Shown here: positions 1,329 to 30,065 of the stretch, piece by piece
How the letters are laid out: every line of letters begins with the position of its first letter
Position numbering within the stretch: the stretch's first letter is position 1
Virus record (IMG/VR): IMGVR_UViG_3300036846_000555
Span: 1-64,000 of that record
Length of the DNA: 64,000 nucleotides
Source of the DNA: a virus
Reading direction: 5' to 3' (one strand)
Translations under genes and position numbers: made by a program
Notes under the pieces: model-generated
Databases searched by the model: none
Seen by the model: the letters and a program-made list of their open reading frames with translations, nothing else
Told to the model about the DNA's origin: nothing

Positions 1329-1362
1329 TAAGCGCACGTCGTGTGCTATCATCTAGGTGCGG
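1329..1362 (+). promoter_or_regulatory. Repeated phage promoter/operator element, copy 1
   Basis: TAAGCGCAC-GTC-GTGTGC-TATCAT-CTAGGTGCGG. Confidence 0.8.
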
Positions 1363-1522
1363 GGTGAGGAAGGGCCTCCCGGCCGGAGCGCTCTCTCCCC
1401 CCGGCTTTCGAAGCCGTCACCGCTCTCGGGGGTCACCGGATCCGGCGTCCAGAGAGGAGACCGGCGCCACGGATGGCGCGACGTTGACGGCGGCGGGACA
1501 CGACCAACGACCGAGGAGAACC

Positions 1523-1840
1523 ATGCCACTGCCAGACCCTCAGCTCGCCTACTACGACGCGCTGATCGCCGCCGCTGAGAAGCAGCTCGACGCTGACGCG
1601 TTCGAATGGGCGGCATCGACCGAGCCCGAGTCGCACGACTTCTACGGCGGCTCGTACGAGAACGGCTACGACGATCCCGACGAGTACCGCGCGACCGTGC
1701 TGGAGATCGGCGCCCGCGACGTCGCCGGGAAGATCGAGCACTGGGAGTCGGCGATCGCCTCCGCGGACGACCCGAGCGTGCCGTTCCGGCCGCGCGGGCT
1801 GGACCCGATTCAGCGGGCCGAGATACGAGCGGGCGCGTAG
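1523..1840 (+). CDS. Acidic hypothetical protein (105 aa)
   Basis: The true start is the ATG at 1523 after ACGACCGAGGAG; the ORF-track start at 1343 lies in the promoter. Confidence 0.75.
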   Translation: MPLPDPQLAYYDALIAAAEKQLDADAFEWAASTEPESHDFYGGSYENGYDDPDEYRATVLEIGARDVAGKIEHWESAIASADDPSVPFRPRGLDPIQRAEIRAGA

Positions 1841-1844
1841 CGCG

Positions 1845-2098
1845 CCCTCCCTCTCGCCAAGGGCCTCCTTGTGGTCCTGAATGCGGGGAGAGCGCCGGGG
1901 AAGTGGCAAGCAACCCGGCGCACCGGTATTGCCATACCAGGCGCCGAGGGCCCGGCGGCCGGTTGATGCCGGGCCCTCAGACCCCTGGATGACCAGGCTG
2001 CGCACGTCGGAGAGGCCTGCACGTTAATGAGGGGCGATCACCGGGCCGCGCGTAGCCATCAGTGAGTCTCTCACCCCGACACCGCAACACCTCACACG
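1845..2098 (-). ncRNA. Candidate structured non-coding RNA
   Basis: No credible ORF. At least 5 hairpins, including ggtat-g-GCAA-tacc (a GNRA loop on the minus strand). It lies directly downstream of a minus-strand copy of the promoter motif. Confidence 0.45.
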
Positions 2099-2105
2099 GA
2101 TCCGT

Positions 2106-2130
2106 GTTCTAGCGCACGACGTGGTATAAC
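2106..2130. promoter_or_regulatory. Bidirectional copy of the promoter/operator element
   Basis: Plus strand: CTAGCGCAC-GAC-GTGG-TATAAC. Minus strand: CAC-GTC-GTGCGC-TAGAAC. Confidence 0.6.
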
Positions 2131-2182
2131 GCCACACCAGCCGTCGCGTGGCGCGGCGGCGCTAACCGAAGAGGGGTGAGAA

Positions 2183-2965
2183 GTGCGCAGAGCCCTGATG
2201 GCCATTCCGGGCATCGCGGGTATCGCGGCGGCGGTCCTGGCAGCAACGGCGCTGGCCGGTCAGCCCGGGGGACAGCTTCCGGGGTGCGAGCCGTCGCATC
2301 AGACGCCGCAGAAGTGCATGTGCCCGGACGGGCACCACGTGTCGATGGACGGCAACCGCCGCGATAAGTGCCCGACCGAGGAGAAGTGCGACGACGCCAA
2401 GATGAAGTCGCCGTGCTGCGATTCGGACAACGACAGGGATGACGTCGACTGCCCGACCAGCAGCAGCAGCAGCACGAGCAGTAGCAGCACGAGCAGTAGC
2501 AGTACCACAAGCAGCACGCCGACGACCAGCTCGACGACGAGCAGCCAGACGGTGACGGTGTCCGTGACCGGCCCTCCCGGCCCTCCCGGCCCTCCTGGCG
2601 CAACGGGGCCTGCCGGACCAGGCGGTCCGAACGGCGCGAACGGCGCGAACGGCAAGAACGGCAAGCCCGCCAAGCCGTGCGTCGTGACCCTGAAGTCGGC
2701 GGAGACGCGGCGTCTGCCAGCGCGGTTCGCCAAGGTCAAGCGGCTGGCCGTGCTCGTTCCCGGGCGCAGGCCGCAGATCCAGCCGGTGCTCCGGGGACCG
2801 CGCGTCCGCGTCAACCTCAAGGGCCTGAAGTGCGGCACGTACGGGATCGTCATCACCGTGCCGAACAGCCGGATCATGCCGGTGCTGCGAATCTGGATCC
2901 TGCCTGGCGGTAAGCGCCTGGAGCGGGTCGGGTTCCCGCTGCCGGTCCCGCCCGAGCTGAACTGA
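2183..2965 (+). CDS. Exported protein: signal peptide, Cys-rich domain, Ser/Thr linker, collagen repeat, basic beta-rich C-terminus
   Basis: Hydrophobic N-terminus ending ATALA, 8 Cys within about 60 aa, an SSSSTSSSS tract and GPP GPP GPP GAT repeats. Confidence 0.8.
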   Translation: MRRALMAIPGIAGIAAAVLAATALAGQPGGQLPGCEPSHQTPQKCMCPDGHHVSMDGNRRDKCPTEEKCDDAKMKSPCCDSDNDRDDVDCPTSSSSSTSSSSTSSSSTTSSTPTTSSTTSSQTVTVSVTGPPGPPGPPGATGPAGPGGPNGANGANGKNGKPAKPCVVTLKSAETRRLPARFAKVKRLAVLVPGRRPQIQPVLRGPRVRVNLKGLKCGTYGIVITVPNSRIMPVLRIWILPGGKRLERVGFPLPVPPELN

Positions 2966-3536: not shown

Positions 3537-3539
3537 GAC

Positions 3540-4103
3540 TCAGCCGCCGCAGCCGACCCACTGGCCTGCGCCAGCGGCATGGTAGATCCGCTCCGCGCAC
3601 ACGTCCTGCCCGGCGGGCGTACTCAGATCGCAACCATAACCCGCTGCTGTAGAGGGCAGAATCTGGTAGCGACCCGTAGCTCCTGAGCTGGGGTTCGTGT
3701 TGTCGGGACCGGTCGAGTAGTTCGTGCCGGATTCCGACGCGCAAGCAGGCACTCCTGCCGCCCCACCGCCGCCGTAGGAAGTGGACGCGGGGTGGTAGGA
3801 GCTATTCGCTGCCGCGACGCTGGGCGCTGCCGCGACGCTGGGCGCGTGGTACACCGGCCGTGGCGCGAACATTCGGTGAAGCACGCTGATCGAGGCTCGG
3901 ATCCGCGCGTCGGTCATGTGACCGGTGCAGCTTGCGTGGGGCCCGATCAGCTTGCACCCGGCGGAGCGGCTGCCGAACCTGTCGGCGACGTGAGCGTAGG
4001 CCCGGCCGTAGGAGACGGCCTCCGCGTGCGTGAGCGCCTGCGCGCTGCCTGCGGGTACAGCAACGGCGAGCACGAAGCTCGCCGTGAGGGTCAATCGCTT
4101 CAA
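3540..4103 (-). CDS. Secreted Rpf-like (resuscitation-promoting factor) transglycosylase
   Basis: TTG start with AGGAG RBS and a signal peptide (AQA). C-terminal CASESGTNY...GATGRYQILPST...QDVCAERIY...GAGQWVGCG is the Rpf/lysozyme-like motif. Confidence 0.8.
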   Translation of the reverse strand: MKRLTLTASFVLAVAVPAGSAQALTHAEAVSYGRAYAHVADRFGSRSAGCKLIGPHASCTGHMTDARIRASISVLHRMFAPRPVYHAPSVAAAPSVAAANSSYHPASTSYGGGGAAGVPACASESGTNYSTGPDNTNPSSGATGRYQILPSTAAGYGCDLSTPAGQDVCAERIYHAAGAGQWVGCGG

Positions 4104-4303
4104 GATGACTCCTGACGGTTGATGTGGTCACTGGACTGCAGGCGCGCTAGGCCTGACGACGGCCCGACCTACCCGGGGCTCCTGCCCCTCACTTCGGAGC
4201 GCGCTGAGTGTGGTCCGTGGGTACTCCTCCTTTGGTTGCGTTCAGGGCGGCCCCGAGTACTCCGGTTTTCGGGACCGCCCGTGCTGGCACAGCGCCGGGC
4301 ACT

Positions 4304-4356
4304 GTAACACGATGCGCGCTATCCTGTACCAAACCGATCCCGACCGACCGAGGAGG
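4304..4356 (+). promoter_or_regulatory. Promoter/operator element with extended RBS
   Basis: GTAACAC-GAT-GCGCGC-TATCCT ... CGACCGACCGAGGAGG. Confidence 0.7.
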
Positions 4357-4361
4357 ACTGG

Positions 4362-4619
4362 ATGAGTACCGAACCACCGCGCGAGGTGTTGTGGATCGGC
4401 GAGCTGCTGAACGACGACGGCGCCGTCACCGCGCGCGCGCTGGTCCCCGAGGATCAGGTCCAGACAGCCAAGGCGGCACACTGGCGGGTGCTGCGCTACA
4501 CGCTGGCGGATCCGAGCATCTCCGAGGCCATCGACATCGGCGTGCGCCTGGCGAACGCGCAGCGGGTCGACGCGCCGCGTGGCTTTCAGCGCAGGCGCCG
4601 ACGTTGGCGGGCGGCATGA
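4362..4619 (+). CDS. Hypothetical protein
   Basis: Strong RBS; first gene of an ATGA-coupled run. Confidence 0.7.
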   Translation: MSTEPPREVLWIGELLNDDGAVTARALVPEDQVQTAKAAHWRVLRYTLADPSISEAIDIGVRLANAQRVDAPRGFQRRRRRWRAA

Positions 4620-5957: not shown

Positions 5958-6190
5958 CTGACGACATCAGGCGCTACGAGCAGGCGATGGTGTGGCGCTC
6001 GCAGGCACTGCCGTTCATGCGCCTGAGCCTGGAGCATCTCCTCCAGGCGCGGGACGCGTGCCCGATGACGGGGCCGACGATGGAGCGCCGGAAGATCGAG
6101 CAGGCGATCAAGCTGGCGCGCGCGGCGTTGAAGGAGTGCGAGAACAACCTGGTGGTCGCCCGGCGGATGGTCGAGCGCCAGACACGCTAG
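5954..6190 (+). CDS. Helical hypothetical protein
   Basis: GTGA coupling. Confidence 0.6.
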   Translation: MTDDIRRYEQAMVWRSQALPFMRLSLEHLLQARDACPMTGPTMERRKIEQAIKLARAALKECENNLVVARRMVERQTR

Positions 6191-6219
6191 CGCGCAAGAT
6201 GAGTGCTAGGGTGTAGGCG
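6187..6219 (+). promoter_or_regulatory. Degenerate promoter element, probably giving a leaderless mRNA
   Basis: CTAGCGCGC-AAGATGAGTGC-TAGGGT-GTAGGCG directly followed by ATG 6220, with no SD. Confidence 0.5.
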
Positions 6220-6639
6220 ATGGCCGACCGAGGAGAAGCGAACAGCTTCAAGCACATCGTGTGGGACGACAGCAGCGTCCCCGAGCTGCAGGGCGCTTAC
6301 GTCATCCGCACCGGCGACGGCTTCATGCTGCACTGGCCGCACAGCCACGCGAGCATCATCCTCGCGAAGGGCGAGGACTGCGACCGGGCTCACATGGACC
6401 TGCTGATCGGCTACCTGCTCGACGCCGACGTCCCGCACGCCCGGCTACGCAAGGCCGGTGCTCGCGCCTACCTGTACGAGCCGTGGAAGATGCGGATCTT
6501 CGTGGACGAGATCAACCCGGGCTGGGGCAGCACGTGGCGCGCGCGGTTCCACGGGCTCGACATCAAGCTCGGGCGCCTGCGCAACTTCCGCGCGCTGCTG
6601 AACGAGCTGCGCGAGCAGCAGATCGAGAGGACCGGATGA
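6220..6639 (+). CDS. Hypothetical protein
   Basis: 139-aa ORF in the expected frame and codon usage. Confidence 0.7.
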   Translation: MADRGEANSFKHIVWDDSSVPELQGAYVIRTGDGFMLHWPHSHASIILAKGEDCDRAHMDLLIGYLLDADVPHARLRKAGARAYLYEPWKMRIFVDEINPGWGSTWRARFHGLDIKLGRLRNFRALLNELREQQIERTG

Positions 6640-8740: not shown

Positions 8741-8764
8741 GAAGCGCACGACGCGTGCTAGAGT
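8741..8764 (+). promoter_or_regulatory. Promoter/operator element
   Basis: GAAGCGCAC-GAC-GCGTGC-TAGAGT. Confidence 0.7.
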
Positions 8765-8857: not shown

Positions 8858-9949
8858 ATGCTGAAGAGGTTCACTACGCGCATCGGCGTGCTCGTCACGC
8901 TGGGCGTACTCGCAGTAGGAGCAGGCAGCGCACTTGCTGCCAGCCATAGCCATTGGCTCATCACGTCCACGCACCAGGTCAAGCCGTCGGTGCTCAAGCA
9001 CCTGCACGGCAAGAAGGGCAAGCACGGCAAGCAGGGCGTTCACGGTGCTACCGGTGCCACCGGAGCGACCGGCGCCACCGGCGCTCAGGGATCGCAAGGC
9101 CTCACGGGTGACACCGGGGCAACTGGCGCGAAGGGCGACACCGGCGCTACCGGAGCAACGGGCGCTCAGGGGTCGCAAGGTCTCAAGGGCGACACCGGCG
9201 CCGCTGGCACCAAGGGCGACAAGGGCGACACTGGAGCCAATGGCGCTGACGGCACCAATGGCACCAATGGTGCCAAGGGCGACAAGGGCGACAAAGGCGA
9301 CCAGGGCCTCACGGGTAACCGTGGATCCGACGGTAGCGATGGCTACAACGGGATCAACGGCGCTGGCCTGACCATCGTCAGCCACGACGGCAACTGCCGC
9401 ACGTTCTCCTGGACTGACGGCTCCGCGCCGGACTTCCAGGTCTGCAACGGCGACCAGGGCCCGAAGGGCGACACCGGCTCGGCCGGTGCCAACGGCAACG
9501 ACGGTGCTCCCGGTCAGCAGGGCTCGCAGGGCAACCCCGGCCACGACGGCGTGGACGGCAAGGACGGCGCCCCGGGTCAGACCGGCGCGACCGGACAGGA
9601 TGGCGCCCCCGGCCAGCAGGGCCCGAAGGGCAACGACGGGACTCCCGGCGTCGACGGGACTCCCGGCCACGACGGTGCAACCGGCCCGGCCGGTGCTCCC
9701 GGCCAGGCAGGTAAGGACGGCGCCCAGGGACCGCAGGGTCCGAAGGGCGACAAGGGCGACACGGGCGCGGCTGGTCCGACCGGACCGCAGGGTAACCCTG
9801 GCGCGAACGGCAAGGACGCAACACTCCCCGCCCCGACCGTCGTCTGCGTCGTGACCAACCCGCAGGGCAAGAACCCGCAGCTCGCCATCGGCGATGCGGC
9901 CTGCGCCGGTCAGACGCAGCTTCAGGTCTACACGGTGCCGACTGCCTAA
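8858..9949 (+). CDS. Secreted collagen-like protein (363 aa)
   Basis: Signal peptide ending ALA, then [16 protein letters not shown], then about 250 aa of Gly-X-Y interrupted by one short Cys-containing domain. Confidence 0.9.
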
Positions 9950-10006
9950 GCCTCGGTACGGACACCAACCGGCACGGACGCCGATCTAGCACGGAAGCTG
10001 GGGCAT

Positions 10007-10037
10007 GGGGGGGTCTCTTCGGAGGCCCCCCTCTTTT
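10007..10037 (+). terminator. Intrinsic terminator
   Basis: ggggggtctc-TTCG-gaggcccccc followed by tctttt. Confidence 0.85.
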
Positions 10038-10114
10038 GTGCCGAACCTCTTTCCAATCGAAAAGAAGTGGTTCGGAGTTAGCTCACGTCCGATGCCGTCG
10101 GTAGCGTGCCCCGC

Positions 10115-10402
10115 ATGCCGCTATCGGACGAGACCATCAACGCGCTGCCGCAGAACGTCATCAACGAGATGGCGATCCTGGAAGACCGCGCGCTCCGCGC
10201 CGAGGGCCAGCTCACGCACAAGACCCGGCAGCTCGCCGCACTGACCGACGAGGTCGCCAAGCTCCGCGGCGAAGTCGGCCTGCTGCTCGACCTCGCAGCC
10301 GCGCTGCAGGAGTTCGCTCAGACCATCGCCGACAGCGCCAGCGTCGAAGCGCGCAGAGTCGAACAGGAGCTTCGCCACTTCCTGGTGGTGCAAGCCGGGT
10401 GA
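10115..10402 (+). CDS. Coiled-coil hypothetical protein
   Basis: MPLSDETINALPQNV...; heptad-rich. TAGCGT lies 7 nt upstream, possibly a leaderless start. Confidence 0.7.
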   Translation: MPLSDETINALPQNVINEMAILEDRALRAEGQLTHKTRQLAALTDEVAKLRGEVGLLLDLAAALQEFAQTIADSASVEARRVEQELRHFLVVQAG

Positions 10403-14222: not shown

Positions 14223-14514
14223 CTGCCCGCCGGGTCACCCGGACGAGTTCGTGGGACGGCCGGTCAACCCGGCCGAGCAGATTCGTGTTCTGCTGGTCCG
14301 CAAGAAGCGTCAGGGGATCATGGACTGGAGCCGCGTGTGGCCGTGGGCGGTCGGCCGCGTGCGCTGGCCGCATGACCGCGAGGAGCGGCACGAGTGGAAG
14401 CGGACGATCATGTGGGCGGAGGTGGCGTTCCGGTCGGCGTACGAGGGCGAGCACGTGATCGTGGACATGAGCGCGCTGATCATGTTTGAGCTGCGGATCA
14501 CCGAAGACGCGTAA
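14185..14514 (+). CDS. Trp-rich hypothetical protein
   Basis: WSRVWPWAVGRVRWPHDREERHEW; the start is uncertain. Confidence 0.6.
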   Translation: MAVAERPGSPAPDCPPGHPDEFVGRPVNPAEQIRVLLVRKKRQGIMDWSRVWPWAVGRVRWPHDREERHEWKRTIMWAEVAFRSAYEGEHVIVDMSALIMFELRITEDA

Positions 14515-14570
14515 GCACACATCGCGCGCTTAGGTGTGCTATCCTTGGTGGTGACCACCGACCGAGGAGG
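14512..14570 (+). promoter_or_regulatory. Promoter/operator element with a shifted extra half-site and extended RBS
   Basis: TAAGCACAC-ATC-GCGCGCTTA-GGTGTGC-TATCCT ... CCGACCGAGGAGG. Confidence 0.75.
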
Positions 14571-14575
14571 AAGCA

Positions 14576-16013: not shown

Positions 16014-16047
16014 CGGCGACGTCCTGCGCAAGCGGTAGCGTTCAGGT

Positions 16048-16124
16048 TGCGGTATGGAGCAGCGGCAGCTCGCCGGGGCGCCCGCACGCCCCGGAGGTCG
16101 TGGGTTCAAGTCCCACTACTTGCC
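16048..16124 (+). tRNA. tRNA-like element or pseudo-tRNA with no canonical anticodon loop
   Basis: The D arm (TGGAGCAGCGGCAGCTCG), variable AGGTC and T arm (GTGGG-TTCAAGT-CCCAC) are intact. The anticodon arm has 12 nt between its 5-bp strands, and the acceptor stem is mismatched. Confidence 0.7.
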
Positions 16125-16163
16125 CGAGAGGGCCGGACAAGGTTCCGGCCCTCTCCACTTGAA

Positions 16164-16197
16164 CTAGCGCGCGATGTGTGCTAACCTTTAGGTGCGG
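16164..16197 (+). promoter_or_regulatory. Promoter/operator element
   Basis: CTAGCGCGC-GAT-GTGTGC-TAACCT-TTAGGTGCGG. Confidence 0.8.
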
Positions 16198-16439
16198 TCG
16201 GAGTGAGGCCGCCGCCCCAGGAGGTCCCTCTCCGGAGTGGAGATCGAAAGCTGAGCGCCCGATCCACCGGGCCAGGGCTGGAGATCCCGGGGAGTCCGGG
16301 CTCAGTTCCCGGATGGGGCACCCAGCAGGACAAGCTTGGATCAGTACCGGCCCTCTGGGCCCCAGATCCTCTGATCCAGCGGGGAACGGCCTCGTTAGGG
16401 CTCGGCGCCTGGCCAGCGTCCGGCCCGCCCGCTAACTGA
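16195..16439 (+). ncRNA. Candidate structured RNA, leader of tRNA-Glu
   Basis: No credible ORF. Nested helices: ctgagc/gctcag, ggccagg/cctggcc, ggatcag/ctgatcc, ggccc-tct-gggcc. Confidence 0.45.
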
Positions 16440-16511
16440 GCCGCGTTCGTCTAGTGGTCAGGACGCCGCCCTCTCACGGCGGTAGCACGGGTTCGAACCC
16501 CGTACGCGGTG
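16440..16511 (+). tRNA. tRNA-Glu (anticodon CTC), CCA not encoded
   Basis: Cloverleaf: acceptor gccgcgt/acgcggt, anticodon arm ccgcc-CTCTCAC-ggcgg, T loop TTCGAAC. Confidence 0.95.
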
Positions 16512-16534
16512 CCTTTGAATCGAGGAGACAACCG

Positions 16535-17165: not shown

Positions 17166-17227
17166 TTAGCGCGCATCGTGTGCTATCCTGTAGGTGGGCC
17201 CAGAGAGGGCCCACACCGACCGAGGAG
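17166..17227 (+). promoter_or_regulatory. Promoter/operator element with hairpin and extended RBS
   Basis: TTAGCGCGC-ATC-GTGTGC-TATCCT-GTAG, then gtgggccc-AGAGA-gggcccac and ACCGACCGAGGAG. Confidence 0.85.
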
Positions 17228-17232
17228 CAGCG

Positions 17233-17657: not shown

Positions 17658-17910
17658 GCGAGCGCTCTTCTTGATGCAGGACTACGCGGGCGGCACGCGC
17701 CAGCTCTACCGAGGCAAGAACCCCGGGATCGCCGAGGAGCGCAAGCGCGCCCTGATGCGCTCCGGCTGGCCCGCGAACACCTTCGTGACAGTGGAGGCCA
17801 TGAGCCTGGCCGAAGCTCACGACAAGGCGCAGGCGATCCTCTGGAAGCGCCTGCACATTGACGCACGTCGTGTGCTAAAATCAGAGCAGACAACGACCGA
17901 GGAGGAGTGA
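17650..17910 (+). CDS. Hypothetical protein whose 3' end contains a promoter element
   Basis: Overlaps the previous stop; the last codons coincide with the repeated element. Confidence 0.6.
   Translation: MARRALFLMQDYAGGTRQLYRGKNPGIAEERKRALMRSGWPANTFVTVEAMSLAEAHDKAQAILWKRLHIDARRVLKSEQTTTEEE
17858..17905 (+). promoter_or_regulatory. Promoter/operator element with extended RBS
   Basis: TTGACGCAC-GTC-GTGTGC-TAAAAT ... ACGACCGAGGAGG. Confidence 0.8.
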
Positions 17911-18704
17911 CAATGCAACTAGGCTTCGGGTATTCCCGAGGTGTCCCGGAGGACATCACGACAGCGTGGGGTGCGCGACTCATCGCCCCGAACGATCTTC
18001 TGCACGACCGGCAGGATCTCGTTGCCGACAGCGACGAGGCCAAGCGCGAGCTGATCGCGTGGCTGAACGGCGCCACGCCCGGCAAGGGCGCGATCCGCGA
18101 GGCGCTCAAGGCGCTGAGCGAGCAGGCGTCCGAGCTGCGCTACCGCGAGGGCGAGTTCACCGTCTACGAGGACGAGGACGGCATCATCGTCGGTAACACT
18201 CAGCAGTCCGGCGGGTATGTGTACGTGAGCGGCTGGTTGAAGCCTGACCGGCTGTCGGCCGAGGAGCGCGAGCGGCTGACCGAGATCCGCCGGATGACCG
18301 AGCTGGGGCGCGCGCACGAGGATCTCAAGCAGGGCTGGTACCGGCTGATCCGCGGCTCGATCCCGGCCGAGCGCTGGGAGAAGGCGTACGGCTGGAGCGC
18401 CAAGGAGGCCGCGCAGATGGACGGCACCAGCTACGACGTCCGGCTGTTCTTCTACGAGCCCGACGGCTCCTACCGCGAGATCGGCGAGAACACCGACCTG
18501 CAGCTTGAGTTCGGCTACGGCGGCACCGGACCGCACACCTCCGCCGAGACCATCGTGCGCGACCTCACCGGCACCTACGACGGCAGTCCCGCCGGGCTGC
18601 GCACGCTGGTGCCCGAGGTGTTCGACGGTGGCCGCATCGCCAGCGAGGTGATCGTGTTCGCTGCCGACGTCAAGGCGCGGCTGGCGCAGCGGGCGGCGGC
18701 ATGA
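17907..18704 (+). CDS. Hypothetical protein (about 265 aa, two domains; start 17907 or 17913)
   Basis: Long ORF with strong RBS. The C-terminal FEFGYGGTGP-type motif appears here as LEFGYGGTGPHTSAETI. Confidence 0.8.
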   Translation: MTMQLGFGYSRGVPEDITTAWGARLIAPNDLLHDRQDLVADSDEAKRELIAWLNGATPGKGAIREALKALSEQASELRYREGEFTVYEDEDGIIVGNTQQSGGYVYVSGWLKPDRLSAEERERLTEIRRMTELGRAHEDLKQGWYRLIRGSIPAERWEKAYGWSAKEAAQMDGTSYDVRLFFYEPDGSYREIGENTDLQLEFGYGGTGPHTSAETIVRDLTGTYDGSPAGLRTLVPEVFDGGRIASEVIVFAADVKARLAQRAAA

Positions 18705-18910
18705 GGGGTCCCTGCAGGTGTCTGCATCGTGCCGCGTGGCGCGTCACGGCGTACCGCTGCAACTACTCCGCCTTCAACGGCTACCACTACACGCCGAGCG
18801 ACTACAGCGAGGTGACGTGCAGCCAGGACGCCGGGGGTTGCGGCAGGCGGTGGCGCACCAAGGCACGCTACGTCGAGGAGCTGCCGCGGATGGCCCGTAG
18901 CTCACGTTAG
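18701..18910 (+). CDS. Zinc-binding microprotein
   Basis: PCRC...CNYSAFNGYHYTPSDYSEVTC...GCGRRWRT. Confidence 0.7.
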   Translation: MRGPCRCLHRAAWRVTAYRCNYSAFNGYHYTPSDYSEVTCSQDAGGCGRRWRTKARYVEELPRMARSSR

Positions 18911-18961
18911 GCGTTACGGGACGCTACACTGGGTCGGCGTACCCGACCCGAGGAGGACAAG

Positions 18962-20165: not shown

Positions 20166-21596
20166 GTGTCGGTCTCCGCACCTCAGCCCGCGGCGCCTGC
20201 TCCGCCACCCGCCGCGGGTGGCGGCGGCAGCTTCGAACAGCTCCATCCCCGTGGGCGGGGTGGGAAATGGATCGTCTCGCACGGCGCCGGGTACGGGGCC
20301 GGAGGGCCTGACCAGACCACCCTGCAGCTTCAGCAGCGCCTGAAGCAGCTCGGCTTCGACGTCCCCGCCGACGGCAAGTACGGTCCGGCGACGAAGCAGG
20401 CCGTCCAGGCGTTCCAGAACCGCTACGGGCTCCAAACGAGCGGCGGCGTGGACGCCGCGACGATGGCGATTCTGCAGAACCCGCCGCCGCAGACGCTCAA
20501 GCAGGCGCAGAAATCGCTGGGGCTCACCGCAAAGGGCACGCCGATCCCGACGAAGACGTCCAAGAAGGTGGCCAAGAAGACGTCCACGGCCAAGACCGCG
20601 ACCGGCGCGACCCGGAGTAAGGGCAAGACGATCTCGTCGCCCCAGGCGACGCTCACGCGGGCCCTGAACGCCACCGTGCAGGGGCCGGGGCATCTCGGTA
20701 ACGGCAACCTCGCTCAGGGCGCGGGCCTGACCGGCACGTCGAGCCCGGCCGTTTCGAACTTGCAGGCGACGCTCACCGCCGCCGGATTCAAGGTCACCAA
20801 GGACGGGCGGTTCGGCCCGCAGACGGAGGCAGCCGTGAGACAGCTCCAGCAGGCGCACGGGCTCCAGGTCGACGGCATCGTCGGACCCGAGACGAAGGGC
20901 CTGCTGATCGGCCTGGCCGCGGCTGCGCCGAAGGCCGCTTCGAAGGCCAGGGCCAAGAAGACCACGCGCGCGATCACGAGCCGGTCGATTCCGGGGCAGC
21001 CCGCCGTTCTGCGCACCAAGGCCGGGACGCCGCGGCACAGCGGCCGGTCCGGCGGAAGCCGGATGAAGCTCCAGCCGCCGAAGAAGGCGCCCGCGACCCT
21101 GAAGTACTCCGCGGAGGTGCCGACCGAGCAGCCCGAGCTGGAGGAGACGACCGTCCAGTTCGGCTACGGCGGCCAGCCGTCACGCTCGATCAAGGACGGC
21201 CGCGACACCACGCCCGCCGCTGACCAGCCGGTGTGGACACGGACCGGCGTCCAGACCGACATCGGCGACCTGGCGATCCCGGACGGCCGTGACCCGGCGC
21301 TGCCGACACCCAGCGTCGGCGAGATCCTCGCTGACGGCCGCGAGCCCGTGCCGCCGCTCTCCGGCCAGACGCTCGCCGACGGCCGCGAGCCTGTGCCGCC
21401 GCCGCCCGGCGACGAGACGATCCCGGACGGCCGCAACTACATCCGGACGGTGTCGCTGCTGGCCGAGGCCGTGCTGGAGCGCAAGGCCGCCAAGACCGGC
21501 ATCGAGTTCGTCTGCGCGCGGGCCCGCGAGCAGGCGCTGCGCGAGCGGCTCAGCGAGGCGGGCTACACCACGAGGAGGAGCAATGACCCTGCTTGA
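20166..21596 (+). CDS. Protein with two peptidoglycan-binding (PG_binding_1-like) domains, DGREP repeats and a C-terminal shared helix motif
   Basis: LQQRLKQLGF...DGKYGPATKQAVQAFQ...GL...G.VD and LQATLTAAGF...DGRFGPQTEAAVRQLQ...GLQVDGIVGPET. No catalytic domain was recognised. Confidence 0.85.
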   Translation: MSVSAPQPAAPAPPPAAGGGGSFEQLHPRGRGGKWIVSHGAGYGAGGPDQTTLQLQQRLKQLGFDVPADGKYGPATKQAVQAFQNRYGLQTSGGVDAATMAILQNPPPQTLKQAQKSLGLTAKGTPIPTKTSKKVAKKTSTAKTATGATRSKGKTISSPQATLTRALNATVQGPGHLGNGNLAQGAGLTGTSSPAVSNLQATLTAAGFKVTKDGRFGPQTEAAVRQLQQAHGLQVDGIVGPETKGLLIGLAAAAPKAASKARAKKTTRAITSRSIPGQPAVLRTKAGTPRHSGRSGGSRMKLQPPKKAPATLKYSAEVPTEQPELEETTVQFGYGGQPSRSIKDGRDTTPAADQPVWTRTGVQTDIGDLAIPDGRDPALPTPSVGEILADGREPVPPLSGQTLADGREPVPPPPGDETIPDGRNYIRTVSLLAEAVLERKAAKTGIEFVCARAREQALRERLSEAGYTTRRSNDPA

Positions 21597-21918: not shown

Positions 21919-22373
21919 TGCCCGACGCTCTGGCGCAGGCGGTCGCAGACCGGGTCGGCGCGAAGACGTCGACCGAGTTCGTCCGGGCGCGCGCCCGCGA
22001 GCGGGTTCTGCGCGAGTGGCAGTGGCTCGACGAGCACGCCGAGGAGTGGCTGCCGACCGCGCTGCAGGAGTCCACCAAGACGGCCGGGTACAGCGTCACG
22101 CCGTCACCGTTCTCGCGGAGCAAGACGAGCAACTGGATCGCTCGGCTCGGCGGGCTCCCGGCGTACATCCAGAACGTCGCGAAGGGCATCATGAAGTCCG
22201 GCAAGTCCGAGTCGGAGGCGATCGCGTCGGCGATCGCCGTCATGAAGCGATGGGCGGCCGGGGGCGGCAAGGTGAGCGCCGAGGTGAAGGCGGCGGCAGC
22301 GAAGGCGCTCAGTCAGTGGGAGGCCCTCAAGGCCAAGAACGCCACGAAGAAGGGCGTCAAAGCCGCCGCATAA
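21918..22373 (+). CDS. Probable head-associated protein (shared helix plus conserved actinophage helical domain)
   Basis: NWIARLGGLPAYIQNVAKGIM...SEAIASAI...WEALKAK. Confidence 0.7.
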   Translation: MPDALAQAVADRVGAKTSTEFVRARARERVLREWQWLDEHAEEWLPTALQESTKTAGYSVTPSPFSRSKTSNWIARLGGLPAYIQNVAKGIMKSGKSESEAIASAIAVMKRWAAGGGKVSAEVKAAAAKALSQWEALKAKNATKKGVKAAA

Positions 22374-22394
22374 GCGCACGACGTGTGCTATACT
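22371..22394 (+). promoter_or_regulatory. Promoter/operator element
   Basis: TAAGCGCAC-GAC-GTGTGC-TATACT. Confidence 0.85.
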
Positions 22395-22399
22395 CAAAG

Positions 22400-22586
22400 C
22401 GTCGGGTGAGAGAAGGGTTCTCCCCGATTGGCGCGAGTCGCCGGTGGGGGCCCAGCTTCGATCCCAGGCGTGGGTGAGCGGCCCCGGCGTCAGGCTCGCG
22501 GCCCTTGAACGGGTGGCTGACAGAGAGCCCGCTCCGATCCCTGGTCCAACCGACTTCACCAGGCTGAGAGAAGAGCGGGCTTCGGG
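22400..22586 (+). ncRNA. Candidate structured small RNA between two promoter copies
   Basis: Three hairpin domains: cgggtgaga/tctccccg; cgcgagtc-gccgg/ccggc-ggctcgcg; agcccgctc-cctggt/accagg-gagcgggct. Confidence 0.5.
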
Positions 22587-22649
22587 CTAAGCACGCATCG
22601 TGTGCTACAATGTAGGTGCGGCCACGAGGCCGTGATCCCCGACCGAGGA
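22587..22649 (+). promoter_or_regulatory. Promoter/operator element with hairpin and RBS
   Basis: CTAAGCACGC-ATC-GTGTGC-TACAAT-GTAGGTG-cggcc-acga-ggccg ... CCGACCGAGGAC. Confidence 0.85.
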
Positions 22650-22653
22650 CACG

Positions 22654-22815
22654 ATGACCACCACCGAGAAGACGTTCACCATCACCTGCCAGCACGGCAA
22701 GTTCGCCAGTCGCTGGGTCGTGAGGGCGTACTGGCTCGGCGCGGAGCGTGTCGTGTACGAGAGCCCCAGCGTCTACGCCTGTTGCCGCTGGGTTGCCAAA
22801 CAGAAAGAGGACTGA
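22654..22815 (+). CDS. Microprotein (53 aa)
   Basis: Not in the ORF track. MTTTEKTFTITCQHGKFASRWVVRAYWLGAERVVYESPSVYACCRWVAKQKED; abuts the next ATG. Confidence 0.7.
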   Translation: MTTTEKTFTITCQHGKFASRWVVRAYWLGAERVVYESPSVYACCRWVAKQKED

Positions 22816-23189: not shown

Positions 23190-23395
23190 GCCCCACCGAA
23201 GAGCAGAACGACCGCTTCGACGCGGTCCTTGACCGGCTCGACGATCGCTTCGTCGCGCGGGTGCTCGGCCTTGGCGGCTACGGCGCCGACTACGAGGCGA
23301 TCATCGTCCGCTTCGACAGCTTTTCGCAGGCGCGGGCTGAGCGGATTCTGCGGGCGCTGGAGGGCGAGGCCCGCCGGATCCAGGGATTGTGGTAA
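23186..23395 (+). CDS. Hypothetical protein
   Basis: ATGA coupling. Confidence 0.65.
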   Translation: MSPTEEQNDRFDAVLDRLDDRFVARVLGLGGYGADYEAIIVRFDSFSQARAERILRALEGEARRIQGLW

Positions 23396-23457
23396 CGCAC
23401 GATGTGTGCTACAATTGAGGTGCGGTCAGAGAGTGGCCGCGACACCGACCGAGGAGC
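23392..23457 (+). promoter_or_regulatory. Promoter/operator element with hairpin and extended RBS
   Basis: GTAACGCAC-GAT-GTGTGC-TACAAT-TGAGGT-gcggtca-GAGAG-tggccgc ... ACCGACCGAGGAG. Confidence 0.85.
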
Positions 23458-23461
23458 AGAT

Positions 23462-25330
23462 TTGACCACCACCCTGCAAGCCGTTTACGAGCGCCAGCAG
23501 GCTGCCGACAACGCGCGCTGGGACGTCCACGAGACCTACGAGCGCGTGTACTGGGAGCTGGACGCCCGGGCGCGCGAGCGCGTCAACGTGTACGAGCATC
23601 CCGACGTCGTCGCTGCCCAGCGGGTCGCCGACAAGCTGACCGCCGAGGTCGCCGCGCTCCGCGAGGAGGTCGGCGGGCGCGTGTTCCGCGTCGTCGACTC
23701 AAAGCTCGACGAGCTGCGCGCCCGCATCGAGAAGCTGAACAAGAAGGCCGCCAAGTACGAGACCGAGCCCGTCACGCTGATCGTCTCCGACGAGCACCAC
23801 CAGGACGTCATCCGCGAGGCCCGCCATGCCGCGGACGCGGTCGAGGCCTCCCTGGAGGCCGTCGAGGGCACCCGCCACTACACCGAGCGGATCGTCGACT
23901 ACACGTTCGTGGTGGTCGACGGGCCCAGCGCGGTGATCGAGGGCTGGGTGTTCGTGGCCACGCTGGACCACGACGCCGACCAGGGCGCCGATGAGAGCGT
24001 CGGCATCCGCCGGGCGCCCGTGGGCACCAACCTCGCCAACCGGATCGGCACCGACGCCGCCGCGGCGGTCGAGGCGGTCGACCTGACGAGCTACCGCCAC
24101 GCCAGCAATGACTGCGACCACTGCGGCTTCAAGCGCCGCCGGAACCAGACCTACGTGCTCTACGAGCTGGCCACCGGCGAGCTGCGCCAGATCGGCTCGA
24201 CGTGTCTGAAGGACTACACGGGCGCCAGCTCCGCTGAGCGGGCCGCGTCCTGGGCCGAGTGGCTGCAGGCGCTGTACAGCGACCTCGGCGGCGGCGGCAA
24301 CTACGAGGATGAGGGCCCCGGCGGCGGACGGATCGCCTACCGGACCGACGACTTCCTGGCCAACGTCGCCGCGGTCACCCGCGAGAACGGCTGGCAGTCA
24401 CGCTGGAGCAAGGACGGCTACGGCGGCTTTGAGCGCAACCACAACGCCACGGCCGACCAGGCGCTGGCCAACATGACCGCCCGCAAGCCTGACATCAAGG
24501 TCACCACCGAGGACCGCGAGGAGGCTCGGATCGCGCTGGAGTGGGTCCGCGACGACCTGGCCGAGCGCGACGAGCTGGACGAGTTCCAGCACAACCTCGC
24601 GACCTACTGCCGCGCGGACTACCTGCCCGCCAAGGGCGACGGATTCGTGGCCTACGCCATCGAGGCGCGCAAGCGCGAGATCGGCGACCGGCTGGAGTAC
24701 GAGCGCAAGCAGCGGGTCGCGGTCGAGTCCGAGTGGATCGGCGAGGTGAAAGAGCGGCTGAAGGGCCTGACCTTCACCGTCACGTTCACCAAGACGATCG
24801 ACGGGAACTACGGCGCCAAGCAGCTCACCAAGGGCCACGACGAGAACGGGAACCTGCTGATCTGGTGGGCGTCCGGCGGGACCTGGCTCGACCAGGGCCA
24901 CACGTACGAGCTGACCGCCACGGTCAAGGCTCACGACCGCGACAGCTACCAGAACGACGCGAAGGTGACCGAGATCACCCGGGTCCACGGCCCCTCCGTC
25001 ACCGACATCACCGTGTGCGACGACTGCGGCGAGCGGCTGCAGCCCGACCCCGAGAAGGCTGGCAGCAGTAAGGCCGAGATCTGCGCCTGCACCATCAAGG
25101 CGCGTGAGGAGGCCGCCGCCGAGGAGGCCGCGGCGGCGGCGGCCTTCGACGCCGAGCACGCTGAGCTGCGCGCGGTCTATGACCGGGTCCGCGAGAACCC
25201 CGAGAGCACCTGGCGGTACCTCCCCTTTGAGAGCTTCGTCCGGACGGCCGGGAACGACCCGGAGCTGGTCGAAGCGCTCGTCAAGAGCCTGGACGAGAAG
25301 GCAGCAGCAACGACCGAGGAGACACGATGA
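23462..25330 (+). CDS. Large phage protein with a Zn site (CDHC...GSTC) and a C-terminal OB-fold-like domain
   Basis: TTG start after the RBS; SEWIGEVKER...TVTF...GNYG...DENGNLLIWWAS...LTATVKAH pattern. Confidence 0.85.
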   Translation: MTTTLQAVYERQQAADNARWDVHETYERVYWELDARARERVNVYEHPDVVAAQRVADKLTAEVAALREEVGGRVFRVVDSKLDELRARIEKLNKKAAKYETEPVTLIVSDEHHQDVIREARHAADAVEASLEAVEGTRHYTERIVDYTFVVVDGPSAVIEGWVFVATLDHDADQGADESVGIRRAPVGTNLANRIGTDAAAAVEAVDLTSYRHASNDCDHCGFKRRRNQTYVLYELATGELRQIGSTCLKDYTGASSAERAASWAEWLQALYSDLGGGGNYEDEGPGGGRIAYRTDDFLANVAAVTRENGWQSRWSKDGYGGFERNHNATADQALANMTARKPDIKVTTEDREEARIALEWVRDDLAERDELDEFQHNLATYCRADYLPAKGDGFVAYAIEARKREIGDRLEYERKQRVAVESEWIGEVKERLKGLTFTVTFTKTIDGNYGAKQLTKGHDENGNLLIWWASGGTWLDQGHTYELTATVKAHDRDSYQNDAKVTEITRVHGPSVTDITVCDDCGERLQPDPEKAGSSKAEICACTIKAREEAAAEEAAAAAAFDAEHAELRAVYDRVRENPESTWRYLPFESFVRTAGNDPELVEALVKSLDEKAAATTEETR

Positions 25331-27294: not shown

Positions 27295-27336
27295 ACCCCG
27301 AGTTGTAAGCCCGGATCCGGAGGTAGGCTCACCGGA

Positions 27337-27510
27337 GTGTCCGATCTCTTGCCGCCGCTGTACGCCGACGTCGAGACGCCCCGCACGTACGCCGACGTCG
27401 AGGATCCGCACGCCTACGCCGACGCCGCCAACCCGCGCGCGTACGCCGACGTCCAGGATCCGACCGCCACGGTCGACGTGATCAATCCCGAGGTACTGGT
27501 CGAAAGCTAA
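27337..27510 (+). CDS. 57-aa microprotein made of 9-aa YADVxxPxx repeats
   Basis: Not in the ORF track. MSDLLPPLYADVETPRTYADVEDPHAYADAANPRAYADVQDPTATVDVINPEVLVES; 27-bp tandem repeat. Confidence 0.65.
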   Translation: MSDLLPPLYADVETPRTYADVEDPHAYADAANPRAYADVQDPTATVDVINPEVLVES

Positions 27511-27547
27511 CTGCGGCCCGGCGCACCGCGGCTCTTACGATGCCGTC

Positions 27548-28252
27548 ATGGCGCTCCTCACTGGCCCGTGGAAGATCAAGCGCGGCGCCACCTCCCCGCC
27601 GTATCAGGTGACGCTGCGTAACGCTGACAAGAGCCCGGTCGACCTGAGCCTCGCCGATCACGTGAACTTCGTCATGTGCCTGCGCGGCGAGACCGAGCTG
27701 CCGACCGTCGACGCGCTGGCAGCCACGCTCCAGGAGGGCGACGCGGACACCGGCACGGACGTCGGCATGTGCGAGTACGACTGGGCGCAGGGCGACACGG
27801 ATGCGATCGGGATCTACGACGTCGAGTTCGCGCTCTACGACGCCACCGGCAACGTGTACGCGCGGATCCCGAACGACGGCTACCTGGAGCTGCAGGTGCT
27901 CGGGAACCTGTCGGCGCCGGAGGTCGAGGAGATCGGCCTGCCGGTCACCTACGACCTCCGCATCTACCACGGCGACACGTGGGCGCAGGCGTTCCGGCTG
28001 CTTCAGCAGGGCGCTCCGGTCGACCTGACCGGCTCGACGGTCGAGTCGTCTGCCGAGGACACGAACAACGTCACGACAGCGCTGACGGTCACGATCCTCG
28101 ACGCTGTCGACGGGCGGCTGCAGATCTCCGCGCCCGCGGGCACGCTCGCGGTCGGCGACTACGACTACGACGTGCAGGTGACCGACGCCAGCAGCGACGT
28201 CACCACCTGGATCAAGGGTCAGCTCATCGTTGATCCGGACGTGACCCCGTGA
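27548..28252 (+). CDS. Tandem BppU-like Ig domains (receptor-binding or baseplate upper protein type)
   Basis: [12 protein letters not shown]......VDLS...V.F...G...YDW..GDT...G.Y..EF, and a second copy YHGDTW...VDLTG...DG.L.I...GDYDYDVQV. Confidence 0.7.
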
Positions 28253-28569
28253 GCACCGGCAGCGTCGAGATCATCGGATTCGACGCGACGGTCGAGATCA
28301 CCCCGCCCGCAACCGCGGCGGTGGAGGTCGTCGCTTCTGCTGGCCCGGAGGGCCCGGAGGGCCCCGCCGGTCCGGAGGGCTCGGTTGGGCCGGTAGGACC
28401 GCAGGGGCCGCCGGGGCCGACAGGGGCGCCGGGGCCAGCGGGGCCGACGGGGCCAGCGGGGCCGACGGGGGCGACGGGGCCACCCGGCCCGTGGACGCAG
28501 ATCACGCAAGCCGCGTACGACGCGCTCGCGCCGCCGGACCCGAACACGCTGTATGTGATCGTCGGATGA
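28249..28569 (+). CDS. Short collagen-containing fibre protein
   Basis: GPE/GPA repeats ending in [21 protein letters not shown], a common phage fibre cap motif. Confidence 0.8.
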
Positions 28570-29996
28570 CCGAGCTGAACACCGCCGGTGCCGTCTATTT
28601 GGGCGCGGCCAGGGCGAGTGCGGTCTACGTCGGAGCGAACCAGGCATGGCCCCAGCTCCCGGCCAGGCTCCCGGGGCTGCTGTTCTGGCTCGACGCGTCG
28701 AAGCTGCCCGGCGCCATCGGCAGCGCCGTCAGCACGTGGCCGGACCTCAGCGGCAACAGACACGACTGCACGGCCATCGGGGCACCGCCGACGCTGCAGG
28801 CGTCGCCGAACGGCCTGCCGTGGGTCCAGTTCAACGGTGCTGGTCTGACAGCGGCGGGACTCGCTGCCGCGCTGTCGGATCGAGCGGAGCTTGGCTACGC
28901 GCTCATGCTGTGGCCGACCGCGTTCAACAACTCGATCGTGATCGAGGCGCCTTCGACGAACGTCTGGGATCTGATGGTCCTGTACGGCGGCGGCGGCGCG
29001 GTCTACGTCGGCACCAAGCAGCCGTCCTACCGGCTGCTGACGCCTCCCGCGCCCGGCGTCCTGGACGACTGGAACCTCGTGACGATCGACATGGCAACGG
29101 ACACGCGGCTGTGGCTCAACGCTGTGGAGGTGACGACCTACTCGGACGGCGGCGGTGGTGTTGCGCTGCCGACGATCTCGCTGGGCACCGACGCGGTGGT
29201 CGGCCAGTACTACAACGGGAACTTCCCGTGGCTGGGGCAGATGGCGGAGATCTGCGTCTACGACCATGCGCTGGCCGACACCGACCGCCAGGCGCTTGAG
29301 CGCTACCTGCACGCGAAGTGGCTGAAGAACCTGGCAGCGATACCGGGGCTGCTGTGGTGGCTCGACGCATCCCAGCTCGCGCTCTCCTCGGGCGCAGACG
29401 TTACGACATGGCCCGACCGGGGACCGAGCCACTACGACGCGACCGCGACCGAGACGCCACCGACGTTCGTCCCCGGCGCGGTGCGCTTCGCGGCGTCGTC
29501 TAACCGGATGCGAGTCGCGGGCCTGGGCACGGCAATGAGCGGACGGTCGGACTACAGCATCGTCTGCCGCTTCAACTCGGCCGATGTCAGCAACTGGCCG
29601 GTCTTCTTCACGTCGCCGTATGACGCGCTCTGGCAGTGGATGCTTGAGCTTGACGCGAGCACCTCCGGCATCTACGTCGGCTCGGGGAATGGGCGCTTCC
29701 GCCTGTTCAACGGCGTGCCGGTGCAGACGAACGCGTGGTCGGTTATGTCCGTCACCGTCACGAACGGCCTGCCGCGCCTGTGGTTGAACGGCGCCGAGGT
29801 CACGAGCTATCAGCTCGGACCCAACGGCGACTGTCTGCCATCCATCTCCGAGATCACTGCCGATGTGCTGCTGTGCGGGTACTACGCCGGTCCCAGCTAC
29901 TCGTTCACCGGCGACATCGCGCACCTCGCGCTGTACGACCACGCGCTGACCGACGCCGAGCGGCAGACCGCCGAGACGTACCTGAACATCGGCTAG
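28566..29996 (+). CDS. Two LamG/concanavalin-like lectin domains
   Basis: Duplicated PGLL(F/W)WLDAS...V..WPD..G...A......P ... G..AE...YDHAL.D.ERQ..E.YL. Confidence 0.8.
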
Positions 29997-29998
29997 TC

Positions 29999-30065
29999 GA
30001 AGCGCACATCTTGTGCTACAATGTAGGTGCGGGCCGGAGAGCCCGCCCCCCCCGACCGAGGAGGC
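29999..30065 (+). promoter_or_regulatory. Promoter/operator element with hairpin and extended RBS
   Basis: GAAGCGCAC-ATC-TTGTGC-TACAAT-GTAGGT-gcgggc-cggaga-gcccgc ... CCGACCGAGGAGG. Confidence 0.85.

Follow-up and report, generated by a model that had tools for sequence, protein, structure and literature searches.

The virus record IMGVR_UViG_3300036846_000555 of IMG/VR (122,349 bp, 99% complete according to CheckV, 68.7% GC) raises the question of why a short palindrome, first described as AGCGCAC-N3-GTGTGCT, should recur next to promoter-like sequences at dispersed positions of its first 64 kb, the stretch that we call the window. A sequence-only reading had listed 13 copies there and had seen in them cassettes consisting of a promoter, an operator, a hairpin and a ribosome-binding site (RBS). 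From sequence comparisons, we consider it rather probable that the cassette is a transcription-unit header made of three modules: a host-sigma promoter carrying an operator for a dimeric phage repressor, an optional 5′ hairpin, and an extended RBS. Below, G000 is the phage under study, G001-G003 are full-length relatives, and G006-G009 and L077 are more distant records; the relatives were found by a pattern scan of IMG/VR and are all uncultured viruses.

The palindrome is indeed repeated, as 14 matches with up to two mismatches are found in the window, where 1.0 would be expected, and none of 100 shuffles reaches 14. When the palindrome is combined with TAnnnT in an oriented pattern, 31 sites are detected in the 122-kb genome, against 0-3 in shuffles, and iterated matrices agree (about 30). 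The site is, however, longer than the 17 bp originally proposed, and its centre is not free: it spans 19 bp in a 9-1-9 arrangement, with the central N3 constrained to RWY. The full consensus is T-AGCRCAC-RWY-GTGYGCT-A, and its terminal TA is the start of the −10 box TAnnnT. The suggestion that the right arm runs into an extended −10 was correct, since T12-G13-T14-G15-C16 forms a TRTGn (“−16/extended −10”) element placed exactly where the −10 requires it. A logo built from 93 sites of four genomes has an abrupt left edge at position 0 (the first T), and its information ends with the last T of the −10. No −35 element is visible upstream in this logo, and a generic scan for −35/−10 sigma-70 promoters returned one site in 20 kb.

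In the same logo, the left and right arms are conserved to the same degree (C3 and C5, 99%; G13 and G15, 99-100%). Conservation of the right arm is explained by its register, which matches the TRTGn of the extended −10. By contrast, the left arm has no polymerase-related cause for conservation and is yet as strongly conserved as the right one. The single systematic asymmetry, G at position 4 against T rather than C at position 14 (T in 86%), is found where TGn demands a T. Regarding the centre, one weak half (GAT or ATC) is tolerated, but the double-weak combination A8+T10 was never seen, against about 7.5 cases expected (P=3e-5), which points to two cooperating half-sites, i.e., to a dimer. 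A nucleic-acid hairpin or cruciform was considered and rejected, as positions 4 and 14 show no covariation (P=0.29) and the arms are thus not kept for mutual pairing.

As for their location, 25 of 30 sites are intergenic, and in 26 the −10 is in register and faces the same way as the gene that follows. The clade also has four bidirectional sites, in which one palindrome serves two back-to-back −10 boxes (e.g., 75576/75593). The string TGnTAnnnT is depleted genome-wide (31 copies, against 54 in shuffles), which suggests selection against stray promoters; the left arm is in register at 18 of these 31 copies, and none of the strings was found in intergenic gaps lacking a cassette. As the survivors mostly have the left arm, extended −10 promoters in this genome would essentially always come with an operator. 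About 18 further copies are found at 67-119 kb, and a whole-genome scan detected none between 30.0 and 67.5 kb. The cassette covers every recognisable promoter except one late promoter. The idea of a scattered regulon under one regulator, acting on promoters with a built-in operator, is supported by the equal arms, the lack of a −35, the fixed −10 register, the orientation with genes and the conservation throughout the clade.

The exception is the 32-kb virion operon, which has its own unique promoter at 31672-31720, unlike the cassettes: AGAATCCATCTGrGGGA, about 17 nt, TAGTAT and then, about 9 nt on, the ATG of the first gene. This late promoter is present once per genome and is conserved in all four relatives. 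A half-operator noticed at the late promoter of G000 was discarded, as the relatives do not have it.

The palindrome is found in no fewer than eight genomes or genome fragments of related uncultured phages. The three whole relatives, of 110-125 kb, are 74-84% identical in nucleotides over 42-64% of the genome and have 18-24 palindromes or 26-31 oriented sites each, while G006-G008 have 8-32 matches to the oriented pattern each. Several lineages have their own version of the operator: G007 has AGCTCAC...GTGTGCT, together with GACCAAGGAG; in G006, about half of the right arms are GTTAGC; and in L077 the left arm keeps only ACAC (nnnACAC...GTGTGCT). The exact motif strings are absent from the searchable literature, except as unrelated primers.

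Which protein would read this operator? Pfam scans of 174 proteins of 45-330 amino acids (aa) left three DNA-binding candidates and no sigma factor. The leading candidate is an 87-aa HTH_17 protein encoded outside the window, at genome positions 76537-76800, in a region that resembles a switch, where divergent cassettes are found at 74.8-76.5 kb. It is present in all eight palindrome-bearing records (8/8), and its gene is always located about 50-100 nt behind a weakened or variant palindrome promoter, which suggests autoregulation. Its helix-turn-helix core, VGTAEAA..LGVERPRIGRW, is nearly invariant among the matches listed (120 of 240). An AF2 model (pLDDT 85) has RacA, NmlR and BldC as its nearest folds, all of them MerR-type winged helices, and the best PHROG match is “MerR-like transcriptional regulator”. 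The predicted homodimer scored 0.31, where the mark is 0.42, which weighs neither for nor against the candidate. In some relatives, the protein is a tandem chain of two diverged winged-helix domains (L068/L076 (G007), 9770-10204; L077, about 9950-10354; L069), and the two lineages with a tandem protein, G007 and L077, are those with asymmetric operator half-sites. A match of tandem chain and asymmetric operator is suggestive, although it would amount to one or two evolutionary events.

Some observations weigh against this candidate. The case for it is built on phyletic pattern, fold and gene position, and other conserved proteins of unassigned fold remain; a distant tandem homologue is present in G009, a record without palindromes; and the G006 protein has a single domain, yet about half of the right arms in that genome are GTTAGC. 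Taken together, we only tentatively propose that the 87-aa MerR-like protein is the binder of the palindrome, a proposal that may well fail. Other proteins were set aside. A winged-helix protein (genome positions 113500-113820, Fe_dep_repress/MarR-like, MarR/DtxR-like) was rejected as the binder because it is absent from the palindrome-bearing G001 and G006-G008 and its recognition helix varies. An XRE-type helix-turn-helix protein is not conserved in the clade. A Mor-like protein beside TerL (77652-78224), whose best PHROGs are “late transcriptional activator”, is more likely a late activator or small terminase, and the late virion promoter may be its target.

In the mechanism that we favour, the promoter would be of the host primary-sigma type, with an extended −10 (TRTGn-TAnnnT) and no −35, and the 19-bp palindrome overlapping it would bind a dimeric phage-encoded protein. 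If transcription starts about 7 nt after the −10, the site would extend from about −29 to −11, with its dyad centre at about −20, and would take in TGn as well as the two leading bases of the −10. A dimer covering these bases should exclude RNA polymerase. One repressor would, in this way, shut down or throttle about 30 units together, while the late virion operon would be exempt through its different and unique promoter.

Alternatively, the protein bound to the palindrome could be an activator that switches these promoters on, either as a MerR-style remodeller of the spacer or as a sigma appropriator. Such a role would suit the MerR-type fold of the candidate (MerR operators lie in the promoter spacer), the absence of a −35 and the presence of late-type genes behind cassettes. 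However, the core elements are strong (TG at −15/−14 in 86-100% of sites, TAnnnT in all of them) and would normally need no activator. Moreover, the dyad has its centre about 8 bp away from the −10 and shares bases with TGn and with the TA of that box, a shorter distance than in MerR-type operators such as that of the merT promoter, and the Pfam scans, with no sigma factor among their hits, speak against an appropriator. On balance, we consider activation unlikely.

Nevertheless, several points count against repression by a dimer in the form just described. The phage is known from metagenomes and the evidence is that of sequence: transcription starts, protein binding, repression as opposed to activation, the regulator proposed and the role of the hairpin are deduced from the anatomy of the element, its statistics, its conservation in relatives and the covariation of the hairpin. 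Additionally, genes of late type (tail fibre, endolysin, terminase, head cargo) follow several of the cassettes, so the simple picture of early genes shut off by a repressor is too neat, and MerR-type proteins that bind within the promoter spacer can act as activators or as repressors.

It could also be argued that a host transcription factor binds the palindrome and is exploited by the phage to time or condition its expression. The binder is known only as a candidate, and the half-site TAGCAC resembles the TTAGCAC half-site of CIRCE/HrcA, whose spacing is 9 bp instead of the 3 bp found here. Moreover, no regulon of the palindrome was found in four Streptomyces genomes (0-1 matches per 7-8 Mb, equal to the reversed-pattern control; Streptomyces may not be the true host), and operator variants follow phage lineages. 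Consequently, a host factor seems very improbable.

The second module, the hairpin, was studied by per-site folding, arm-swap statistics and covariance-model alignment. Hairpins are more stable than their shuffles (mean z −2.4), and the two arms of one site are complementary at 5.6 of 6 positions, against 3.45 of 6 for arms taken from different sites (37 leaders; P<2e-4), with at least 20 arm classes present. In the covariance-model alignment of 62 leaders, 76.5% of cells pair, against 59.3% in shuffles, and 0 of 500 shuffles reach this value. Compensatory changes were found in five of six pairs, and the covariation score (0.347) exceeds those of all 500 shuffles (0.142) and of slid controls (0.04-0.21). 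The alignment was fitted to structure and is hence biased towards it, which counts against these last figures. Compensated stems are also seen at orthologous cassettes of one gene (CGGGCC/GCCCG, CGGCCC/GGCCG and GGAGGG/CCCTCC). MAFFT followed by RNAalifold recovered no structure from the leaders, as hairpins of differing length are out of register, and Rfam, in both gathering and E-value modes, reported only a tRNA-Glu. The hairpin is, thus, under structural selection with its sequence free.

Pairing in the stem begins 5-8 nt beyond the −10, where the 5′ end of the transcript would be expected. Stem-loops in this position stabilise messengers, as in the ompA leader and in the phage SP82 and aprE leaders of B. 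subtilis, which likewise have a stem-loop a few nucleotides from the 5′ end, kept in structure and free in sequence. By this analogy, the hairpin is most likely a 5′ mRNA stabiliser that would protect the extreme 5′ end of the transcript. The proposal that it acts as an antiterminator site akin to lambda boxB fits less well and is not supported: nut/boxB combines a fixed GNRA-like pentaloop with an N-type peptide and boxA, whereas here the stem would begin at about +1, stems are unrelated in sequence and variable in length, loops vary and have 3-7 nt, and the leader alignment contains no boxA-like conserved block between hairpin and RBS.

The third module is the RBS motif GACCGAGGAG, with 32 exact copies in G000, where 0.4 per strand are expected, and 125 in four genomes. 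In these four genomes, start codons peak 5 nt after the motif and 73% of them are ATG. The motif, with one mismatch allowed, precedes 17 of 24 promoter-proximal genes and 15 of 182 others, some of them inside operons, and such promoterless copies (e.g., at 25312) make it an autonomous module. As had been noted from the sequence, its GACC part is additional to a Shine-Dalgarno sequence: reasoning from the known anti-Shine-Dalgarno, it would not pair with the usual 3′ end of 16S rRNA. In the orthologs of the leaderless 6190 family (G000 at 6226, G003 and G002), GACCGAGGAG persists past the start codon in different frames, which indicates that the nucleotides themselves are selected. No small RNA complementary to CCGACCGAGGAG is found in the phage, as every complement is the RBS of a minus-strand gene. 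CCGACCGAGGAG is an autonomous, start-associated, extended Shine-Dalgarno motif resembling the start-associated sequences (SAS) of cluster K mycobacteriophages, and it is used without the promoter as well.

Cluster K SAS are motifs of 12-13 nt with AGGAG a few nucleotides before the start codon, conserved beyond rRNA pairing and of function not established (PMC3203893). They show a bias towards ATG, are frequent after larger intergenic gaps and often have an inverted-repeat element upstream (PMC3203893). This analogue had been named for the cassette, and CCGACCGAGGAG is, in the same way, an asymmetric AGGAG motif 3-7 nt before starts that is conserved beyond rRNA pairing. There are also differences, as the cluster K consensus is GGGATAGGAGCCC, the 17-bp imperfect inverted repeats of ESAS do not pair as RNA, whereas the upstream hairpin here covaries, and a defined promoter-operator precedes the motif here, unlike in cluster K (PMC3203893).

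Such conservation might mean that the hairpin, with or without CCGACCGAGGAG, is an RNA operator bound by a protein, either in a boxB-like antitermination or as a target like those of RegA/RegB, which would define a second, post-transcriptional regulon. The GAGA-type loops of about half of the hairpins would fit, as would an RBS motif of 10-12 nt that is conserved far beyond the needs of ribosome pairing and kept inside coding regions. However, besides the diversity of loops and stems and the lack of a boxA-like partner or a complementary small RNA, many cassettes have no hairpin, canonical terminators are rare and no Rfam family matches, all of which makes an RNA operator quite improbable. A related proposal is a phage-private expression code of two layers, in which the MerR-like protein reads the operator and a phage factor or modified ribosome reads CCGACCGAGGAG. 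We regard this code as distinctly unlikely. If true, phage mRNAs would be translated selectively or destroyed at set times, which has never been established as a role of cluster K SAS, and in some lineages a single-chain tandem “dimer” would read an asymmetric site.

With these modules described, the copies in the window may be examined individually. Nine of the 13 listed are clean (1330, 8742, 16165, 17167, 17859, 22372, 22589, 23393 and 30000), that at 14513 has a displaced second right arm and −10, those at 2110, 4303 and 6187 are degenerate, and one at about 18893 had been missed. Together with a solitary RBS motif, they are as follows:

1330-1522, plus strand: cassette 1, with a perfect-arm palindrome and −10 TATCAT (1330-1352), a structured leader of about 155 nt, GACCGAGGAG at 1509-1518 and ATG at 1523.
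2110-2132, no strand assigned: degenerate copy with an intact left arm, right arm GTGGTAT and a −10-like TATAAC.
4303-4361, plus strand: variant copy with weak arms, −10 TATCCT, no hairpin, CCGACCGACCGAGGAG at 4346-4355 and ATG at 4362; the G002 ortholog retains the copy.
6187-6235, plus strand: variant with 8-5-8 spacing, −10 TAGGGT and ATG 7 nt on, probably leaderless, with GACCGAGGAG at 6226-6235 within the reading frame.
8742-8764, plus strand: promoter-operator with a long leader, ahead of a collagen-like tail-fibre gene.
14513-14575, plus strand: copy with the palindrome at 14513-14531, a displaced second right arm and −10 (GTGTGC-TATCCT) at 14534-14545, GACCGAGGAG at 14560-14569 and GTG at 14576.
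16165-16513, plus strand: promoter-operator (16165-16187) driving a non-coding leader of about 250 nt and a tRNA-Glu(CTC) at 16440-16513.
17167-17232, plus strand: canonical cassette with palindrome and −10 at 17167-17189, a hairpin at 17194-17214 (8-bp stem, AGAGA loop), GACCGAGGAG at 17218-17227 and ATG at 17233.
17859-17912, plus strand: short-leader cassette with no hairpin, −10 TAAAAT, GACCGAGGAG at 17895-17904 and ATG at 17913, heading the endolysin operon (endolysin at 20166-21596).
18893-18961, plus strand: degenerate copy with a 7-bp insertion before −10 TACACT, GACCCGAGGAG and ATG at 18962; the G002 ortholog is in register.
22372-22588, plus strand: perfect-arm promoter-operator (22372-22394) driving a segment of about 195 nt without open reading frame (ORF) or RBS, conserved in G003.
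22589-22653, plus strand: canonical cassette with −10 TACAAT, a hairpin at about 22619-22632, GACCGAGGAC at 22641-22650 and ATG at 22654.
23393-23461, plus strand: canonical cassette with −10 TACAAT, a hairpin at about 23420-23441, GACCGAGGAG at 23447-23456 and TTG at 23462.
25312-25321, plus strand: GACCGAGGAG without promoter, inside an operon and 5 nt before the next start (25327).
30000-30070, plus strand: canonical cassette with −10 TACAAT, a hairpin at about 30029-30046, a C-run, GACCGAGGAG at 30054-30063 and ATG at 30071; it is the final copy before the virion block.

Four types of leader can be distinguished. The first has a hairpin and CCGACCGAGGAG, and 42-52 nt separate its −10 from the start codon; the second has the RBS motif only, and 31-35 nt in between; the third has no leader, the ATG being 6-9 nt after the −10, as is also kept in orthologs; and the fourth is a long non-coding RNA, at 1330, 8742, 16165 (to the tRNA-Glu) and 22372. 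The combination of TAGGTG, hairpin and extended RBS (GACCGAGGAG, or GACCGAGGAC at 22589), which had been attributed to many copies, is found in four window copies (17167, 22589, 23393 and 30000), the rest having short leaders, no leader or long non-coding ones. In the same way, the opening of small-gene islands or non-coding RNAs, proposed for each copy, is true of some, while others head tail-fibre-like, endolysin or terminase operons.

Some of these copies have features of their own. In the 14513 copy, the palindrome is followed by a second GTGTGC-TATCCT, 12 bp further on, and the corresponding locus of relatives is a divergent promoter pair. The 4303 palindrome also reads in the leftward direction (TAGCGCGCATCGTGTTACAGT), so a minus-strand RNA may start there; 3537-4361, between a minus-strand lipoprotein-like gene and this variant cassette, is a stretch of 825 bp without a called gene. 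Probable leaderless mRNAs are found at 6207-6235 of the window and at genome positions 76427-76461 and 84822-84853, in which the ATG or GTG follows the −10 by 6-9 nt, an arrangement that orthologs share. The segments 1353-1508 and 22395-22588 are cassette-driven, have neither ORF nor RBS, and find no Rfam match even at an E-value of 1. Additionally, a tRNA-like sequence at 16029-16156 (acceptor-like stem, perfect T-arm GTGGGTTCAAGTCCCAC, long extra arm) was called by neither ARAGORN nor Rfam; 3′ of it is a strong hairpin, which directly precedes the cassette of the 250-nt RNA and the tRNA-Glu.

The repeats had also been suspected of seeding recombination, in which case the cassettes would be mainly mobile or recombinogenic linkers, spread by recombination and bordering shuffled islands. 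The PeSL cassettes of T4-type phages are such a case: in them, a terminator stem-loop precedes a −35/−10 promoter, and they mark indel borders and form mini-circles (PMC2839356, PMC4122927). The resemblance is that of a repeated header of promoter, stem-loop and Shine-Dalgarno sequence before small blocks of accessory genes (PMC2839356, PMC4122927). Here, however, the hairpin is downstream of the inferred start, without a U-tract, no terminator is found in cassettes (a terminator scan was no richer than shuffles), there is no −35, the operator is palindromic and borders are not enriched, so this analogue does not hold.

Regarding borders, island starts and ends were taken from the comparison of G000 with each relative, with random gene starts as the control. 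Non-homologous island borders fall at cassettes in 8 of 50 cases, against 5.5 expected (P=0.17), and in 5 of 65 and 4 of 65, against 7.1 (P=0.86 and 0.94), so the seeding of recombination is unsupported. Single cases do fit, as a conserved cassette may precede different genes (17167 and its G003 ortholog), some islands relative to G003 begin exactly after a conserved cassette (1320, 6244, 8761, 16155, 17242 and 109919), and the segment 17242-17890 has a cassette on either side; the phage also encodes RecT and a PD-(D/E)XK nuclease. By contrast, the identical stretches shared by pairs of cassettes have at most 26 nt (median 9), the modules occur separately, and stems have drifted with compensation while functional motifs are exact, which argues for selection rather than recent copying. 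The probability that we give to linkers is, consequently, very slight. The sole convincing intrinsic terminator in the first 40 kb is at 10007-10041 (an 11-bp GC stem and CTTTTGT), just 3′ of a collagen-like tail-fibre gene; terminators of other types are often used by high-GC hosts.

The header that we propose can also be compared with dispersed operators of other phages. The conserved inverted repeats (CIRs) of phiC31, reportedly described by Ingham et al. in 1994 and Wilson et al. in 1995, are said to be 17-bp inverted repeats bound by the repressor c; they reportedly occur in many intergenic copies tied to a repeated promoter class, in a temperate phage where the binder is the immunity repressor. 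The system studied here is similar in its many intergenic copies in a high-GC phage, its repeated promoter class and its presumed scattered regulon of one protein, but it has another sequence and an operator fused to the −16/−10, its TerL is SPO1-like, and neither integrase nor resolvase was found. No tyrosine or serine recombinase was found either in G000 and its three full-length relatives, and no close prophage is present among GTDB species genomes, which separates the cassette from temperate repressor systems. As in dispersed operators of the P1 C1 type, the same palindromic site is found here at about 30 separate promoters, in a fixed −10 register.

Cluster O mycobacteriophages, which are non-temperate, have more than 30 copies per genome of 17-bp repeats, TGTTCGG-N3-CCGAACA, with no known binder (PMC4351075). 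The 7-3-7 dyad geometry, the many copies and the apparently non-temperate phage are common to both cases, but the cluster O repeats show no link to promoters or starts and a third of them are inside genes, while those described here keep a fixed −10 register and are oriented with genes (PMC4351075). The stoperators of L5/Cluster A are asymmetric, oriented sites, bound by a monomer, that act on elongation in temperate phages (PMC9283540). Although about 30 dispersed sites, presumed here to serve one phage regulator as they do there, are common to both (PMC9283540), stoperators are asymmetric 13-bp sites inside transcribed regions, and the site here is a symmetric 19-bp palindrome at promoters.

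To place the cassettes in their genome, genes were called by a codon-bias caller written for this analysis, which gave 206 genes, nearly all on the plus strand. Positions 1-31 kb contain small genes, collagen-like tail-fibre genes, the endolysin and head-associated proteins, followed by the virion block at 31.7-64.3 kb (capsid at 33751, sheath at 37913, baseplate at 60587). Beyond the window are RecT, the PD-(D/E)XK nuclease, a primase-helicase, TerL (78431), a dense array of small genes including ArdA, and large head-cargo proteins. No close cultured relative was found by megablast of 8 kb or by tblastn of two proteins against cultured phages, and sheath and TerL have distant matches only. 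TerL is about 28% identical to those of SPO1-like Bacillus myoviruses, and direct terminal repeats are present in two of the three full-length relatives. The phage is, by these features, probably virulent, and lysogenic immunity is an improbable role for the cassette, given the SPO1-like TerL and the lack of an integrase. G007 is labelled as a provirus by IMG/VR. We infer a high-GC Gram-positive host from the leaderless starts, the −35-less TAnnnT promoters, the Streptomyces-type DUFs and the distant Streptomyces homologues.

Dispersed operators embedded in promoters are already known as a kind of control, so their presence is not surprising in itself. What sets the cassette apart is the fusion of the operator to the −16/−10 instead of a −35, its presence in a probably virulent SPO1-like myovirus, the covarying 5′ hairpin and the coverage of nearly all promoters. 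CCGACCGAGGAG provides a second natural example of SAS-like start-associated motifs, and the modules (−35-less promoter, operator, 5′ hairpin and strong RBS) could be used as expression parts for high-GC Gram-positive hosts. For this uncultured clade of high-GC soil myoviruses, with genomes of 105-134 kb (records at least 85% complete) and no cultured relatives, the cassettes provide a nearly complete map of transcription units. They also reveal a compact design, in which each extended −10 promoter would have its own operator and stray extended −10 boxes would have been purged elsewhere.

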